64,000 nucleotides of DNA from Spirochaetota bacterium (lineage in GTDB: Bacteria > Spirochaetota > Spirochaetia > DTKZ01). Location of the stretch: the NCBI GenBank assembly GCA_026418195.1, contig JAOABU010000095.1, forward strand, positions 17,964 to 81,963, written 5' to 3'. The notes below the pieces were generated by a model. That model had not been told where the DNA came from. It saw nothing but the letters and a program-made list of their open reading frames with translations, and ran no database searches. The translations under genes were made by a program, and so were the position numbers. Below, piece by piece: positions 2,982-64,000 of the stretch (position 1 is its first letter; every line of letters begins with the position of its first letter).

Positions 2982-4430
2982 ATGGAAGCATGGATCGTGG
3001 GGCTTGTTTTCGTCCTTGTGTTTGGATTGATTCTCTATAGGAAGATACCCATTCACTATGTCTCTCTGGTAGGCGCTGCAATTCTTATCGTCACGGGCAT
3101 TATTCCTTTAGGAGTGGCGCTTGGAAACAGTGTCGAATGGGAAGTGTTGTTTATCTACTTTGGGTATGGAATGCTGAGTGTACTGCTTCAGGAAAGTATG
3201 CTTCCCCGTGCCTTAGCGGATGCGATCATTCCTCGAGTACGATCTGAAAACGAGCTTATTTTTTACCTAAGTGCAGTAGCCGCCTTACTTTCTAGTTTCA
3301 TGCCGAATCCTGTAGTTGTCCTTATGGTAGCTCCCCTTGCCCTGGATGTAGCGGATCGATTAAAACGATCCCCGTTTCCCTATCTTGTAAGTATCGCTAT
3401 AGCGTCCAATGTGGTTACAACCGTGACGATGGTAGCGGATCCTCCTTCTATAATATTGGCCATGACCACGAAGATGACTTTTCTAGACTTCTACTGGTAC
3501 CAAGGTAAACCTGGCTTAGGAACCCTGTCGGTAGCAGGCGTAATTGTAGCACTTTTTTCCTTATTGTTTTTAAACAGGAAAATGAACGCTCCCCTTCATG
3601 TCGACGTTGAAACATACCATGCCCCAAGAGCATCGGTGATGATCTTTATCCTAAGCTTCCTGATAGGGATCGGTTCGTTAATTTTGAAACGCTGGATCTC
3701 TCCACTTGCTTTACTGGCAGGATTGGGAGGGGTAGCTTCTTTCGTATTCATCCTGGATGGTAGAATAGCTTCCTTCTATCGAGGAACCCTTCCATCCTTT
3801 CAATTAGGTCCCACTTCTGTCTTTGTTTTAAGTATTTTTGCTTTGATCATCGCCCCTCAGGAATCTCCCCCTGGAATCGCTGCCTTTATCAGCTGGCAGG
3901 GATGGATCGGTTTAGGGCTTGGGTTGATCTGTATTGGTACCATGGGCAGGAAGGCAGCCAAAGAGGTTAAAGAGTACGATTGGGAGACTACTTTGTTTCT
4001 TCTTGGGATTTTCATCGTCGTGGATTCGGTGGACCGGGTAGGAATCCTCTCTGACTTCGTAAAGGTACTTATGCAGGCGGGATTCCGGGATCCTTTCTGG
4101 GTATTCATGCTCGTTACTTGGTTAAGTGTGGCTCTATCTGCCTTTATCGATAATGTTCCGTACACGGTCCTGATGATCCCTGTCTGTGGGTATTTCGCCA
4201 AAACTTTGGGAATTAATCCCCATTATCTCTACTATGGAATGCTTATTGGTACAGGAATCGGTGGGAACATTACTCCCGTGGGAGCTACAGCAAACGTCCT
4301 GGCTTGTGGGATGTTGGAAAAGCGAGGGATCAAGATCCACACACTTGAGTTTATGAAACTGAGTGTTCCATTTTCTATTTCTGCAGTAGTATCGGCCCAA
4401 ATATTGATTCATCTGTTCTGGTACCGATAA
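2982..4430 (+). CDS. ArsB/NhaD-superfamily (CitMHS/YbiR-like) anion permease
   Basis: 482 aa polytopic membrane protein with two-repeat architecture and motifs typical of the ArsB_NhaD permease superfamily. Confidence 0.6.
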   Translation: MEAWIVGLVFVLVFGLILYRKIPIHYVSLVGAAILIVTGIIPLGVALGNSVEWEVLFIYFGYGMLSVLLQESMLPRALADAIIPRVRSENELIFYLSAVAALLSSFMPNPVVVLMVAPLALDVADRLKRSPFPYLVSIAIASNVVTTVTMVADPPSIILAMTTKMTFLDFYWYQGKPGLGTLSVAGVIVALFSLLFLNRKMNAPLHVDVETYHAPRASVMIFILSFLIGIGSLILKRWISPLALLAGLGGVASFVFILDGRIASFYRGTLPSFQLGPTSVFVLSIFALIIAPQESPPGIAAFISWQGWIGLGLGLICIGTMGRKAAKEVKEYDWETTLFLLGIFIVVDSVDRVGILSDFVKVLMQAGFRDPFWVFMLVTWLSVALSAFIDNVPYTVLMIPVCGYFAKTLGINPHYLYYGMLIGTGIGGNITPVGATANVLACGMLEKRGIKIHTLEFMKLSVPFSISAVVSAQILIHLFWYR

Positions 4431-60613: not shown

Positions 60614-60643
60614 TTGACAGAGATTTAGCCCTGTTGGTATAGT
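60614..60643 (+). promoter_or_regulatory. Near-consensus sigma70 promoter TTGACA-18-TATAGT for the tRNA gene
   Basis: Perfect -35 and 5/6 -10, ending about 17 nt before the tRNA 5' end. Confidence 0.65.
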
Positions 60644-60659: not shown

Positions 60660-60732
60660 GGTGGCGTAGCTCAGTCGGTAGAGCAAGCGGCTCATATCCG
60701 CTTGGTCAGGGGTTCAAGTCCCTTCGCCACTA
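60660..60732 (+). tRNA. tRNA-Met(CAU) (elongator-type or lysidine-modified tRNA-Ile2). CCA not encoded. G1·U72 closing pair.
   Basis: Hand-folded cloverleaf: acceptor GGTGGCG/CGCCACT, D-arm GCTC-AGTCGGTA-GAGC, anticodon arm AGCGG-CTCATAT-CCGCT (anticodon CAT), variable loop TGGTC, T-arm AGGGG-TTCAAGT-CCCTT. Lacks the initiator-specific features (C1·A72, 3 G-C pairs in the anticodon stem). Confidence 0.8.
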
Positions 60733-60742
60733 AAACGAACCA

Positions 60743-61453
60743 TTATAGGTTGGGCGGATTCCCCAAAGTTTCACCTCGGATTCGACAGGGAACTCCTTTT
60801 TGTTGAAACTGATCCTTCACCTCCTGCAGGAAAGAATAGGGATAGGGGGTTACCCTGCGCCCATAGTCGGGATCGAGGACATGATGCACTCGTACTCCTG
60901 TAAGAACTACTTGCATGGCTCCCTTTAAATGGGTTGCCCATTCTCTAGCATCGGAAAGGTCAAAGATTTCCGGCGCTACGGTAATGCGAAACTCGTGAGG
61001 TAGCCCTAAACGAATGAGAAGGCGGGCCGATTCCCGTACTATCGTGCCTGTTTCTTTCCTCCCTCCCACCAGAGAATATTTCTCGGGAGCGGTTTTTATA
61101 TCCATGGCAATGTAATCCGGGCGAAGCGTTTCGAAGACCTCCGGCTTGGTTCCGTTGGTATCTACCTTTACCCTATACCCTATCGCTTGGATATCCTTGA
61201 TTAAATCTTGCAATCCGGGAACTAGGAGGGGTTCTCCACCAGAAATACAGACCCCCTGTAGGATGGATCTCCTCTTCTCGAGGAACCTAAGGATTGCTTC
61301 CCAACTCTCCATCCCTTCTGGTTCCGGGCCTTCCACCAGTTCTGGATTGTGGCAGTAGGGACATCGTAGATTGCATCCCCGTGCAAAGAGCACAGCGGAT
61401 ACGAATCCCGGATAATCGATGAGACTCGTCTTTTCTAATGCGAATCGGACCAT
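60743..61453 (-). CDS. nrdG: Anaerobic ribonucleoside-triphosphate reductase activating protein (radical SAM)
   Basis: CNLRCPYCHNPE radical-SAM cluster motif near the N-terminus. About 235 aa. Confidence 0.85.
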   Translation of the reverse strand: MVRFALEKTSLIDYPGFVSAVLFARGCNLRCPYCHNPELVEGPEPEGMESWEAILRFLEKRRSILQGVCISGGEPLLVPGLQDLIKDIQAIGYRVKVDTNGTKPEVFETLRPDYIAMDIKTAPEKYSLVGGRKETGTIVRESARLLIRLGLPHEFRITVAPEIFDLSDAREWATHLKGAMQVVLTGVRVHHVLDPDYGRRVTPYPYSFLQEVKDQFQQKGVPCRIRGETLGNPPNL

Positions 61454-61914
61454 TGGATCGATAGTCGAGGTCGGAGATCCTCTAGTTGATCCACCGTATG
61501 GGCCTCAATAATGGGCCGACCATTCCTGTCGAAGAAGAGTACTGTAGGAGTCGAAAGGATCTGATACGTTTTTGCTTCCGACAGTCCCTCCTCCGTATCC
61601 ACGTCCACTTGTTTCCCAGAAATGGGAAGTTGAGAAACATACTCTTTCACGGGCGGACAGTTAGGACATGTCTTCCGATAGAAGTACCGGTATTCGGCAA
61701 CTTCTCGAGGAGCTTGCATTTCTGGATTTTTCTCCTTCGGAGGATCAAACGTTACTCGCAATCTGTATTCTTCTTTTTTCCCTTTGTTCCAGTTTCTTAG
61801 GGAACGGTAGTAGCCCACAATACGGGTGTACACTTCGCATTCCGTTCCTTGTACCGATTCCATTTGAGCTCGCAGTAGGGCGAGTTCTGCTTCTATTTCC
61901 TGTAGGGTTCTCAT
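61435..61914 (-). CDS. Glycyl-radical module of class III RNR (YTRIVGYY...WNKGKKEE) fused to a thioredoxin-fold CPNC domain; separate ORF in-frame with nrdD
   Basis: Residues about 25-55 match the NrdD C-terminal glycyl-radical signature (R-x-x-G-Y-x7-(F/W)N-x-GK-x-EE). The C-terminal half has CPNC, a cis-Pro TP, and VLFFD. Own RBS GGAGGAG 7 nt upstream of the ATG. Confidence 0.7.
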   Translation of the reverse strand: MRTLQEIEAELALLRAQMESVQGTECEVYTRIVGYYRSLRNWNKGKKEEYRLRVTFDPPKEKNPEMQAPREVAEYRYFYRKTCPNCPPVKEYVSQLPISGKQVDVDTEEGLSEAKTYQILSTPTVLFFDRNGRPIIEAHTVDQLEDLRPRLSIQWSDSH

Positions 61915-61932
61915 GCTTGTACTCCTCCACGT

Positions 61933-63960
61933 TTATTTAGCGTTGATCAAAATCAATTCCCGTTCTTTCTCTAAGTCCCTGATCTTCCGTTGCAGGGCTT
62001 CCTTTAATTCCGTTTCGCACTTGGGGCAGGTCATGTGTTCTCCTGAAAGGTACCCATGAACAGGGCAGATAGAGAAGGTTGGGGTGATGGTGAAATACGG
62101 GATACGGTAGTTTTCCGCTATCGCCCGTACCAGATTCCTGCATGCTCGCCAATCCTCGATAGCTTCCCCAATGAAGGCGTGGAATACAGTTCCTCCCGTA
62201 TATTTTGTCTGGATTTCTTCCTGATGATCCAGAGCATCGAAGATGTCCATACGGTAGGTTACCGGAATTTGGGTAGAGTTGGTGTAGTAGGGTTCCCGTT
62301 CACCTGCGGTGATGATGTCGGCAAATTTCTCTTTATCATGTTTTGCCAGTCGGTACGAAGTGCTTTCGGCAGGAGTAGCCTCCAGGTTGAAAAGGTCTCC
62401 TGTATCGGTTTGATAGAGTACTAATCGCTCCCTCATATGATCCAGAATCTCAAGGGTGAACTGTTTTCCTTCAGGCGAAACGATGTCTTTACCTAGGAAG
62501 TTCAGCAAGCACTCGTTCATCCCGCAAATCCCAATAGTAGAGAAATGGTTGTTGAGGGTTTTCAAGTACCTCCTTGTGTAGGGGAAGAGCCCTGCTTCCA
62601 GGAGCCGACTGATCACTTTTCGTTTGATCGTGAGGGATTCGGCAGCTAAATCCATCAGATGATCCAACCTCTGGAAAAAGTCCCTTCGAGAGTCCGCTAA
62701 ATACCCGATTCGGGGTAAATTGATGGTTACCACACCGATGGATCCGGTGAGCTCATCTGACCCAAAGAGCCCTCCTCCCCGTTTCCGCAACTCTCGTTTA
62801 TCCAGTTGCAACCGACAGCACATGGACCGGACGTCACCGGGCCGAAGGTCTGAATTGATGAAATTCTGGAAATAGGGAGTTCCATACTTGGCAGTCATTT
62901 CGAAAAGTAAACGAGCATTCTCGCTTTCCCAATCAAAGGTGCGGGTGATGTTGTAGGTTGGGATGGGGTATTGGAATCCCCGTCCATTGGCATCTCCTTG
63001 GAGCATCAGTTTGATAAAAGCCCGGTTGATCATGTCCATCTCTTTTTGGCAATCACCATAGGTAAACGTAGCAGGTTTTCCCCCTACGATGGCGGGCTTA
63101 TCCTGTAGATCTTCTGGTACTGTCCAGTCCAGTGTGATGTTGGTGAAGGGAGCTTGGCTTCCCCATCGGGATGGGGTATTTACCCCAAAAACGAAGCTTT
63201 GGATGCATTGGGTCACTTCCTCCTCATCCAATCCATCCGCCCTCACGAACGGGGCGAGGTAGGTGTCGAAGCTGGAGAACGCCTGTGCCCCTGCCCATTC
63301 GTTCTGCATGATGCCCAGGAAGTTCACGATCTGCTGAATCAACGTGGAAAGGTGACGCGCCGGTCTTGAGGTGATTTTGTCAGGCACTCCTCCCAGTCCT
63401 TCCTCTATGAGCTGACGCAACGACCAGCCGGCACAGTACCCAGAGAACATGGAGAGATCGTGGATGTGAAAATCTGCGTTTCGATGAGCTTCCGCAATGG
63501 GTTCGGGATAGATGTTCTTCAGCCAATAATTCGCTGTGATGGTACCTGAGTTGTGGAGAATGAGACCTCCCAGTGAAAAATTAACATTCGCATTCTCATT
63601 CACCCTCCAGTCCGTCTGGTTCAGGTATCCATCCATCGTACTGTTGATGTCCAGCATCAATTTCTGCGTATCCCGCATCACCTCATGCCGTGCCCGATAC
63701 AGGATGTACGCTTTGGCGATATCTACCTGTTTTGCTTCGATCAGGACGGTCTCCACTAGATCCTGTATTTCTTCTATGGCGGGGGCAGAGTTTGGATGTC
63801 TGCCCTTCATGAAATCCACCAGTTTCTTCTCTACTTGCCGGGTTAATCCTTCCGCTAGGTCCGTATCTTCCTGGTTCCGCACTGCTCGAATGGCCTTGTG
63901 GATAGCGTTGAAAATCTTCTCCCGGTTGTACTTTTCCAGAGTCCCGTTTCGTTTTACCAC
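61933..63960 (-). CDS. nrdD: Anaerobic (class III) ribonucleoside-triphosphate reductase catalytic subunit, ending after the Zn-ribbon and lacking the glycyl-radical motif
   Basis: N-terminal ATP-cone (VKRNGTLEKYNREKIFNAI), catalytic core, and C-terminal CPVH...CPKC Zn-ribbon. No R-x-x-G-Y motif about 16 residues after the last Cys. Stop TAA at 61933-61935. Confidence 0.85.
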   Translation of the reverse strand: MVKRNGTLEKYNREKIFNAIHKAIRAVRNQEDTDLAEGLTRQVEKKLVDFMKGRHPNSAPAIEEIQDLVETVLIEAKQVDIAKAYILYRARHEVMRDTQKLMLDINSTMDGYLNQTDWRVNENANVNFSLGGLILHNSGTITANYWLKNIYPEPIAEAHRNADFHIHDLSMFSGYCAGWSLRQLIEEGLGGVPDKITSRPARHLSTLIQQIVNFLGIMQNEWAGAQAFSSFDTYLAPFVRADGLDEEEVTQCIQSFVFGVNTPSRWGSQAPFTNITLDWTVPEDLQDKPAIVGGKPATFTYGDCQKEMDMINRAFIKLMLQGDANGRGFQYPIPTYNITRTFDWESENARLLFEMTAKYGTPYFQNFINSDLRPGDVRSMCCRLQLDKRELRKRGGGLFGSDELTGSIGVVTINLPRIGYLADSRRDFFQRLDHLMDLAAESLTIKRKVISRLLEAGLFPYTRRYLKTLNNHFSTIGICGMNECLLNFLGKDIVSPEGKQFTLEILDHMRERLVLYQTDTGDLFNLEATPAESTSYRLAKHDKEKFADIITAGEREPYYTNSTQIPVTYRMDIFDALDHQEEIQTKYTGGTVFHAFIGEAIEDWRACRNLVRAIAENYRIPYFTITPTFSICPVHGYLSGEHMTCPKCETELKEALQRKIRDLEKERELILINAK

Positions 63961-64000
63961 GAATCGGACACCTACAGATGGGGCCTCCTCTCGAATACCG

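Follow-up and report, generated by a model that had tools for sequence, protein, structure and literature searches.

A class III ribonucleotide reductase of Spirochaetota divided between two genes, the smaller encoding the glycyl-radical loop and a thioredoxin-like domain

Glycyl-radical enzymes are seen as single-chain proteins in which the radical domain has to swing out to reach the activase, and pyruvate formate-lyase (PFL) is, to our knowledge, the only one known to take up a radical domain in trans. A 64-kb stretch of the Spirochaetota contig JAOABU010000095.1 (assembly GCA_026418195.1), hereafter called the window, raises the question of whether a class III ribonucleotide reductase (RNR) can also be built in this way. 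The open reading frame (ORF) of the catalytic protein NrdD ends there ahead of the glycyl-radical loop, and a small ORF follows that encodes this loop together with a thioredoxin-fold domain and overlaps nrdG, the activase gene. A sequence-only reading of the window had noticed the thioredoxin-fold domain and proposed it as a built-in disulfide reductant; the larger point, beyond that reading, is that NrdD is truly split into two polypeptides. Is this a broken gene or an enzyme naturally made in two pieces, and what would the attached domain do?

NrdD divided between two genes

The large ORF (nrdD-large, 61933-63960, minus strand like the rest of the operon) encodes 675 amino acids (aa) with an ATP-cone (residues 2-93, 63682-63957; PF03477, E 3.1e-20) and the barrel, and it matches positions 1-530 of the 562 positions of Pfam NRDD (E 9e-182), where it ends without a glycyl-radical loop of its own. 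The NCBIfam model PRK08270 is likewise shared between two reading frames, with model positions 6-658 matched by the large ORF (1096 bits, cut-off 548) and positions 648-682 by the small one. The latter (61435-61914, 159 aa, ATG start) comprises an N-terminal helix, the glycyl-radical loop, a linker and the thioredoxin-like domain. Its residues 24-56 (61747-61845; EVYTRIVGYYRSLRNWNKGKKEEYRLR) correspond to the last 32 NRDD positions (531-562; E 5.9e-8, 32.3 bits, cut-off 26.2); three NCBIfam NrdD models are matched at their C-termini as well. The match is to NRDD and not to the PFL-type Gly_radical model. The loop itself reads RIVG34YY, in EVYTRIVG34YYRSLRNWNKGKKEEYRLR (Gly34 codon at 61813-61815), and R31, I32, V33, G34, Y35, N41, W42, N43, G45, K46, E49 and R53 are invariant over 115 sequences. 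The cut in the NrdD polypeptide falls exactly between the Zn site and the glycyl-radical loop, which is left to the small ORF. We are highly confident that this architecture is that of a two-gene class III RNR, with a small subunit composed of radical loop and thioredoxin-like domain.

Within the window, the small ORF is in frame with the large one, the two being separated by a TAA codon and an 18-nucleotide (nt) spacer (61915-61932) that holds the Shine-Dalgarno sequence GGAGGAG (61922-61928). At the other end, nrdG (60743-61453), a radical S-adenosylmethionine (SAM) activase matching TIGR02495 (NrdG2, E 6e-49), starts with an ATG at 61453, and the stop codon of the small ORF ends at 61435. 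The operon of nrdD, small gene and nrdG, with the nrdG start 19 nt inside the small ORF, is as the sequence-only reading had described it.

When one genome per species was scanned, relatives turned up in at least 567 genomes; the best 80 loci, all of Spirochaetota type, were examined. The order nrdD-large, small gene, nrdG is kept in 77 of the 80, with nrdG alongside in 76. Relative to the large gene, the small gene lies in frame 0, 1 or 2 in 27, 19 and 31 of the 77 loci, respectively; the gap between both genes runs from -4 (overlap) to 346 nt, and a GGGAGG-type ribosome-binding site precedes the small gene in related loci. Complete or high-quality genomes of cultured organisms carry the split as well, e.g., Brucepastera parasyntrophica, Treponema pectinovorum ATCC 33768 and T. 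socranskii ATCC 35535. The small-subunit family comprises 1396 clusters at 90% identity, or, at 50% identity and E<=1e-30, 158 clusters that are all 125-345 aa long, and no full-length NrdD with a thioredoxin domain occurs among the best 150 family matches. Mixed frames, variable gaps, the order kept in 77 of 80 loci and a family devoid of full-length NrdD-thioredoxin proteins together lead us to conclude that the split is ancient and selected, and that it is the normal state of a large Spirochaetota clade. That this is an ordinary nrdD affected by a nonsense mutation, a sequencing error or programmed read-through, as an artefact or through decay, would agree with the frame being shared in the window and in L002 and L003, its closest relatives, but is practically untenable in view of a random frame relation over 77 species, the wide range of gaps, a small gene with its own Shine-Dalgarno sequence, conserved flanking helices and the genomes of cultured strains, the frame relation and the gaps ruling out both pseudogene and read-through. 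The fused redoxin, which the sequence-only reading had regarded as unusual, is new insofar as we found no earlier description of it, but it is no one-off, being standard in this clade.

Small genes of this family presently go by the names 'thiol reductase thioredoxin', 'hypothetical protein' or 'anaerobic ribonucleoside-triphosphate reductase', so their annotation needs correcting. Two loci labelled Paratractidigestivibacter sp. (L027) and uncultured Prevotella sp. (L034) hold a spirochaete-type operon with 71-72% large-subunit identity; these are probably mis-binned contigs and not a spread to other phyla.

The thioredoxin-fold domain and the active site of the large subunit

Behind the radical module, a variable flexible linker (residues 57-73, 61696-61746), for which AlphaFold2 (AF2) gives a predicted local distance difference test score (pLDDT) of 57-72, leads to the thioredoxin-fold domain (residues 74-150, 61465-61695). 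Among 228 family members, Gly motif and CxxC are 25 to 231 residues apart (median 65). As a single sequence, residues 77-142 reach only sub-threshold Pfam matches, namely Thioredoxin_2 (E 0.0017; the best score, 19.1 bits against a cut-off of 27), Glutaredoxin (0.0079), Thioredoxin_3 (0.0088) and Thioredoxin (0.024), and TIGR02196 scores 18.6 against 88.55. The PHROG family phrog_22, 'thioredoxin domain', is matched at E 1.1e-6, and a 115-member profile compared with solved structures finds Pyrococcus furiosus PDO (PfPDO, 1A8L) as its best match (E 1.1e-5), with further matches to 1J08, the glutaredoxin 7C10, the 78-aa thioredoxins 3ZIJ and 3ZIT, and MJ0307 (1FO5). Taken individually, 41 of the 115 members match Glutaredoxin, 24 Thioredoxin_3 and 23 Thioredoxin_2 at E<1e-3. 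With the 115-member alignment, AF2 predicts the order strand-helix-strand-helix-strand-strand-helix for residues 74-150 at pLDDT >90, and the top 50 Foldseek matches in the PDB are all thioredoxins (probability 1.00, best E 3.6e-5).

The predicted elements comprise a strand at 74-79 (YRYFYR), C83-P-N-C86 (61657-61668) opening a helix at 86-94, a strand at 99-104, T122-P123-T124 (Pro123 codon at 61546-61548) before a strand at 124-128, a strand at 134-138 and a helix at 141-150. In pairwise alignment, C83-P-N-C86 falls on the thioredoxin CGPC and T122-P123-T124 on the cis-Pro motif I75-P76-T77. Profiles and structure agree on a thioredoxin fold behind the glycyl-radical module (phrog_22, the 115-member profile, AF2 and Foldseek). 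Each of the fold elements that the sequence-only reading had picked out, from the first strand through CPNC, helix, strand and cis-Pro to the final unit, is present in the AF2 model and the alignments, and the profile search of the C-terminal half returns redoxins (1A8L and phrog_22), even if Pfam with the single sequence stays below threshold. We place the domain in the thioredoxin-fold superfamily as a divergent member that belongs to no curated family and is nearest, by size and topology, to the small glutaredoxin-like redoxins.

C83, C86 and P123 are invariant among the 115 aligned homologues, and Gly motif and CxxC occur together in 120 of 120 homologues and in 143 of 147 distant representatives. 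A purely structural thioredoxin-like domain was rejected because both cysteines are invariant. The hallmarks of the NrdH-redoxins are a CVQC active site and a WSGFRP motif. Membership in that group was rejected as well, given CPNC, the lack of a WSGFRP-like motif and the absence of any NrdH model among the NCBIfam matches.

Which reductant the enzyme would need was read from an alignment of the large subunit with the Thermotoga maritima structure 4COI and 70 related large subunits (71 in total). Cys176 (63433-63435), the S-M-C381-C382-R finger loop (M380-C381-C382-R383 at 62812-62823) and Glu527 (in FNLEATPAE, 62380-62382) are invariant in all 71. Cys176 aligns with T. maritima Cys125, the strand-A cysteine conserved in all RNRs (PMC4493059). 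Cys381-Cys382, in SMCCRL, falls on the T. maritima SCCR (328-331) and provides the third finger-loop cysteine that, together with an active-site Glu, makes up the NrdD2 signature (Wei et al., as summarized in PMC4493059). Glu527 corresponds to T. maritima Glu495, the proposed proton source in thiol-dependent NrdD2 enzymes (PMC9669993, PMC4493059), and Burnim et al. (PMC9669993) tie this Glu to formate-independent, thioredoxin-dependent reduction. A putative Zn-site motif, C632-x2-H635...C645-x2-C648 (62017-62067), corresponds in alignment to the final part of the T. maritima Zn ribbon and is the last element held in common with unsplit NrdD; in all 71 large subunits His replaces the second Cys.

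Judged by these residues, the large subunit has a thiol-type (NrdD2) active site and not a formate-only NrdD1 site. On the subclass, which the sequence-only reading had left to such an alignment, the outcome is a thiol-type signature (Cys176, Cys381/Cys382, Glu527) that nevertheless keeps the Met of formate chemistry. The NrdD2 signature makes the tethered domain most likely the enzyme's own disulfide reductant, and we lean, if only slightly, towards the redoxin serving as the reductant in turnover. The proposal of a built-in reductant thus gains an active site that suits it, although the role itself is read from sequence and an activation role is a live rival. For double-Cys/Met class III RNRs, whose reductant is disputed, a built-in redoxin allows a direct test.

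Proposed joining of the two subunits and possible task of the redoxin

The large subunit runs on for 27 residues beyond its last Zn-site Cys (C648), and conservation and AF2 point to an amphipathic tail helix in residues 649-675 (61936-62016), with conserved L656, I/L660, L663 and L670 at a 3-4 hydrophobic spacing, and conserved E666 and R/K667. The match to PRK08270, which describes unsplit enzymes, stops at residue 660, leaving most of this tail without a counterpart. An amphipathic helix of the same length opens the small subunit (residues 4-20, 61855-61905; AF2 pLDDT ~87-91), with hydrophobic positions 4, 7, 11, 14, 18 and 21 and a heptad-like conservation over 70 paired loci. From the last Zn ligand to the radical Gly there are ~60 residues here vs 12 in T. 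maritima NrdD, where CPVC ends at 608-609 by alignment and the radical residue is Gly621 (PMC4493059). By this comparison, each new terminus has gained one helix. Chain topology dictates that the small-subunit helix end close to where the large-subunit helix begins. We read this most naturally as an antiparallel helix pair, and such a pair would zip the radical loop onto the large subunit.

We consider it probable from these sequence features that the locus encodes a naturally two-piece class III RNR, in which the small subunit supplies both the radical loop and a tethered reducing redoxin. NrdG, translationally coupled downstream, would place the radical on Gly34 of the small subunit, and the antiparallel helix pair and the conserved NWNKGK..E..R segment would keep the loop in the large-subunit barrel. 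The radical would move on to a finger-loop cysteine, and NrdD2-type thiol chemistry would reduce the nucleotide and leave a Cys176-Cys381/382 disulfide. The redoxin, held at high local concentration by its variable linker, would reduce this disulfide, and a general cellular reductase would recharge the redoxin, as no reductase is encoded in the operon. As a side benefit of the split, the oxygen-labile, radical-bearing piece would be cheap and separately replaceable. Within this scheme, we infer the helix pairing, the radical on Gly34, the target of the redoxin and the source of its electrons. Both of its main ideas have a precedent in other RNRs, taken up below: a glutaredoxin fused to NrdB as working reductant, and a separately encoded redox-active C-terminal domain in class II NrdJa + NrdJb.

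Several observations weigh against this scheme. The operon encodes neither a thioredoxin reductase nor a ferredoxin:disulfide reductase, and none is conserved in its surroundings; related loci have no conserved neighbors beyond nrdG and, in some, nrdR, and no thioredoxin reductase or thioredoxin motif was found elsewhere in the window. In RNRs of classes I and II, the active site is closed to redoxins and a shuttle Cys pair is required (PMC4390871), and the proposed mechanism leaves unexplained how a folded 80-aa domain would gain access to Cys176 and Cys381-382. The finger loop keeps Met380, the Met of formate-dependent chemistry (PMC9669993), so formate is a possible reductant. A split phage enzyme (L094) and 53 viral mini glycyl-radical ORFs, described below, have no thioredoxin domain, so the split does not require one. 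Regarding the junction, the charges of the two added helices give no clear signal of complementarity (about +0.4 and -3.2). When an artificial fusion of large and small subunits was modeled by AF2 with large-subunit homologues, mean pLDDT was 65; helices appeared at 646-673 and 676-697 (pLDDT 62-83), and residues 697-834 stayed below 50 with no confident docking.

Foremost among the alternatives, the redoxin may serve activation and maintenance by keeping the Zn-site and finger-loop cysteines reduced for NrdG, e.g., after contact with oxygen, while formate drives nucleotide reduction through the retained Met-Cys chemistry. The position of the Zn site, directly beside the proposed helix junction, would suit such a task. 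However, Glu527, tied to formate-independent reduction, is invariant along with the third Cys, and the fused redoxin of a class I RNR is a turnover reductant (PMC6187632), so we hold this alternative to be unlikely, though worth keeping in sight.

Possible separate expression, orphan genes, viral relatives and known parallels

In some loci, the two-piece enzyme may also be regulated in two parts. In 12 of 70 loci (L022, L026, L040, L043, L053, L054, L056, L057, L063, L064, L069 and L077), the region separating large and small genes contains NrdR-box-like 16-bp palindromes (ACACTATATATAGTGT, <=3 mismatches), often accompanied by a TTGACA, and none was found within 400 nt upstream of the large gene in these 70 loci. 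This intergenic placement points to an NrdR-controlled promoter of their own for the small gene and nrdG.

Some small genes stand alone. Orphans with no nrdD or nrdG within 4 kb were found at L012:3995-4441, L016:~3995-4424 and L030:3989-4522; the one in L012 is flanked by a 1238-aa Big_2 protein and a type IV secretion coupling protein, and that in L030 adjoins a DUF6361 protein. The L012/L016 type (P0064) counts 176 member sequences. Relatives of the radical module are encoded at 66 loci on IMG/VR contigs, six of them being ordinary full-length NrdDs, and a search of a plasmid collection gave no match. A 44.9-kb viral contig carries a complete 166-aa gene of glycyl-radical domain (GRD) and thioredoxin domain with CPNC (L083:5001-5501), with neither nrdD-large nor nrdG within 5 kb. 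Another viral locus (L094:1916-5189) has the same split point: its 1022-aa large subunit matches NRDD in two stretches up to position 532, with a ~300-aa insertion that could be an intein, and is followed by a 64-aa ORF consisting of helix and Gly loop without a thioredoxin domain.

In 53 of the 66 viral loci, spanning L084-L147, stand-alone frames of at most 130 codons (~46-98 aa) contain RxxGY, with no similarity to NrdD-large within 5 kb (e.g., L099:1099-1245, L086:4992-5183 and L137:4989-5153). Of these mini proteins, six (48-71 aa) were compared with NRDD, and all of them score 34-45 bits over positions 526/531-562, above the cut-off of 26.2; PHROGs has no dedicated family for such proteins. 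From their sequences, these ORFs may be phage-encoded 'spare-part' radical domains for the class III RNR of the host.

Such stand-alone genes invite another explanation, in which the small subunit is an obligatory, GrcA-like radical protein that is activated off the enzyme and swapped after oxygen cleavage, with the thioredoxin domain as an accessory for protection or repair. It is compatible with the two-piece enzyme that we favor, and it draws on the palindromes, which would allow the small gene and nrdG to be expressed separately, on the orphan small genes in L012, L016 and L030, on the viral GRD-thioredoxin gene L083 and the 53 viral stand-alone NrdD-type mini ORFs, and on the precedent of GrcA for PFL (PMC13450708). 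Yet the large subunit has no loop, so the small protein is its sole radical carrier and no spare, and the invariance of both redoxin cysteines in the cellular family is left unexplained; we rate this explanation as improbable, somewhat below the activation role.

Returning to the two-piece enzyme with its tethered reductant, a fuller picture would be that the class III RNR of Spirochaetota consists of two polypeptides, the radical loop being separately encoded, regulated and exchangeable, held by a helix pair and accompanied by its own reductant; taken as a whole, we put this forward tentatively, as falling somewhat short of an even chance. If true, then together with the viral mini ORFs it would mean that in-trans radical domains exist for RNR as well as for PFL, and that phages can supply radical domains to a host enzyme. 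The split might also explain how anaerobes that are exposed to oxygen, among them oral and gut treponemes, can renew an oxygen-labile enzyme at low cost. A natural division of NrdD at the base of its radical loop offers a ready system for studying activation and radical-domain docking with separable parts.

The closest functional relatives are the NrdD2 enzymes of Neisseria bacilliformis and T. maritima, with which the spirochaete enzyme shares the barrel, the strand-A Cys, the double-Cys finger loop, the active-site Glu, an adjacent nrdG and a protein dithiol as the proposed reductant. They are, however, single polypeptides with their own glycyl-radical domain and a free thioredoxin, whereas a second polypeptide carries both loop and redoxin here; the finger loop also reads MCCR rather than SCCR, and the Zn site is C-H-C-C. 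GrcA/YfiD is alike in being a small stand-alone glycyl-radical-loop protein that is presumably radical-SAM-activated and inserted into a large barrel subunit. It differs in being a homologue of the PFL C-terminus and not of NrdD, in backing up an enzyme that has its own loop, and in lacking both a redoxin domain and a docking helix. According to a 2026 review, spare-part radical proteins are known for formate-lyases only (PMC13450708).

A redoxin attached to the radical-carrying subunit is also found in Grx::NrdB of Facklamia ignava, in which the fused glutaredoxin (Grx) demonstrably works as RNR reductant (PMC6187632); that enzyme is of class I, and its glutaredoxin sits N-terminally on a ferritin-like subunit. 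The same study lists one grx::nrdD fusion on bioinformatic grounds, and its survey required at least 90% RNR-profile coverage (PMC6187632), so GRD-only proteins were missed, as small genes of this kind will be by any survey demanding near-full-length RNR matches. In the split class II enzyme NrdJa + NrdJb (Pseudomonas aeruginosa type), the chain is likewise spread over two adjacent genes and a redox-active C-terminal module is separate (PMC5704485), but it depends on B12 and its separate piece is a Cys-rich Zn-finger domain instead of a radical loop with thioredoxin fold. In phage genomes, nrdD is the RNR gene most often split (6 cases), and these splits were ascribed to introns, inteins and homing endonucleases (PMC3653736). 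The viral contig L094 breaks at the same point as the spirochaete genes; the spirochaete split, in contrast, is free of intervening elements; it is an ancient and conserved one, to which putative docking helices and a redoxin have been added.

For the redoxin part alone, the small MJ0307/PfPDO-type proteins of archaea and thermophiles, which gave the best profile matches, are similar in size (~80 aa), topology, CPxC-type site and cis-Pro, but these and NrdH are free-standing proteins. In full-text literature from which subscription journals are mostly absent, and leaving room for an earlier mention elsewhere, such as in RNRdb annotations, no account was found of an NrdD made from two cellular genes, of an NrdD-type glycyl-radical protein standing alone or of a GRD-redoxin fusion.

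At the edges of the locus, the frame of nrdD-large is still open to the end of the window (63958-64000), and its close homologues are longer by ~22 N-terminal residues (22 in P0122). In the related locus L002, an NrdR-like gene (L002:1413-1892) lies directly upstream of nrdD-large. Taken together, these observations place the start of the operon outside the window, the true start of nrdD-large probably lying beyond position 64000. A further N-terminal variation is seen in B. parasyntrophica (CP084606, L001:3355-5964), whose 869-aa large subunit has an extra NrdR-type Zn-ribbon (PF22811) before the ATP-cone. At the opposite edge, a tRNA-Met gene (CAT; 60660-60732, plus strand) converges with the end of nrdG, and it is preceded by a near-consensus sigma-70-like promoter (60614-60643, plus strand) with TTGACA, an 18-nt spacer, TATAGT and a TG extension.

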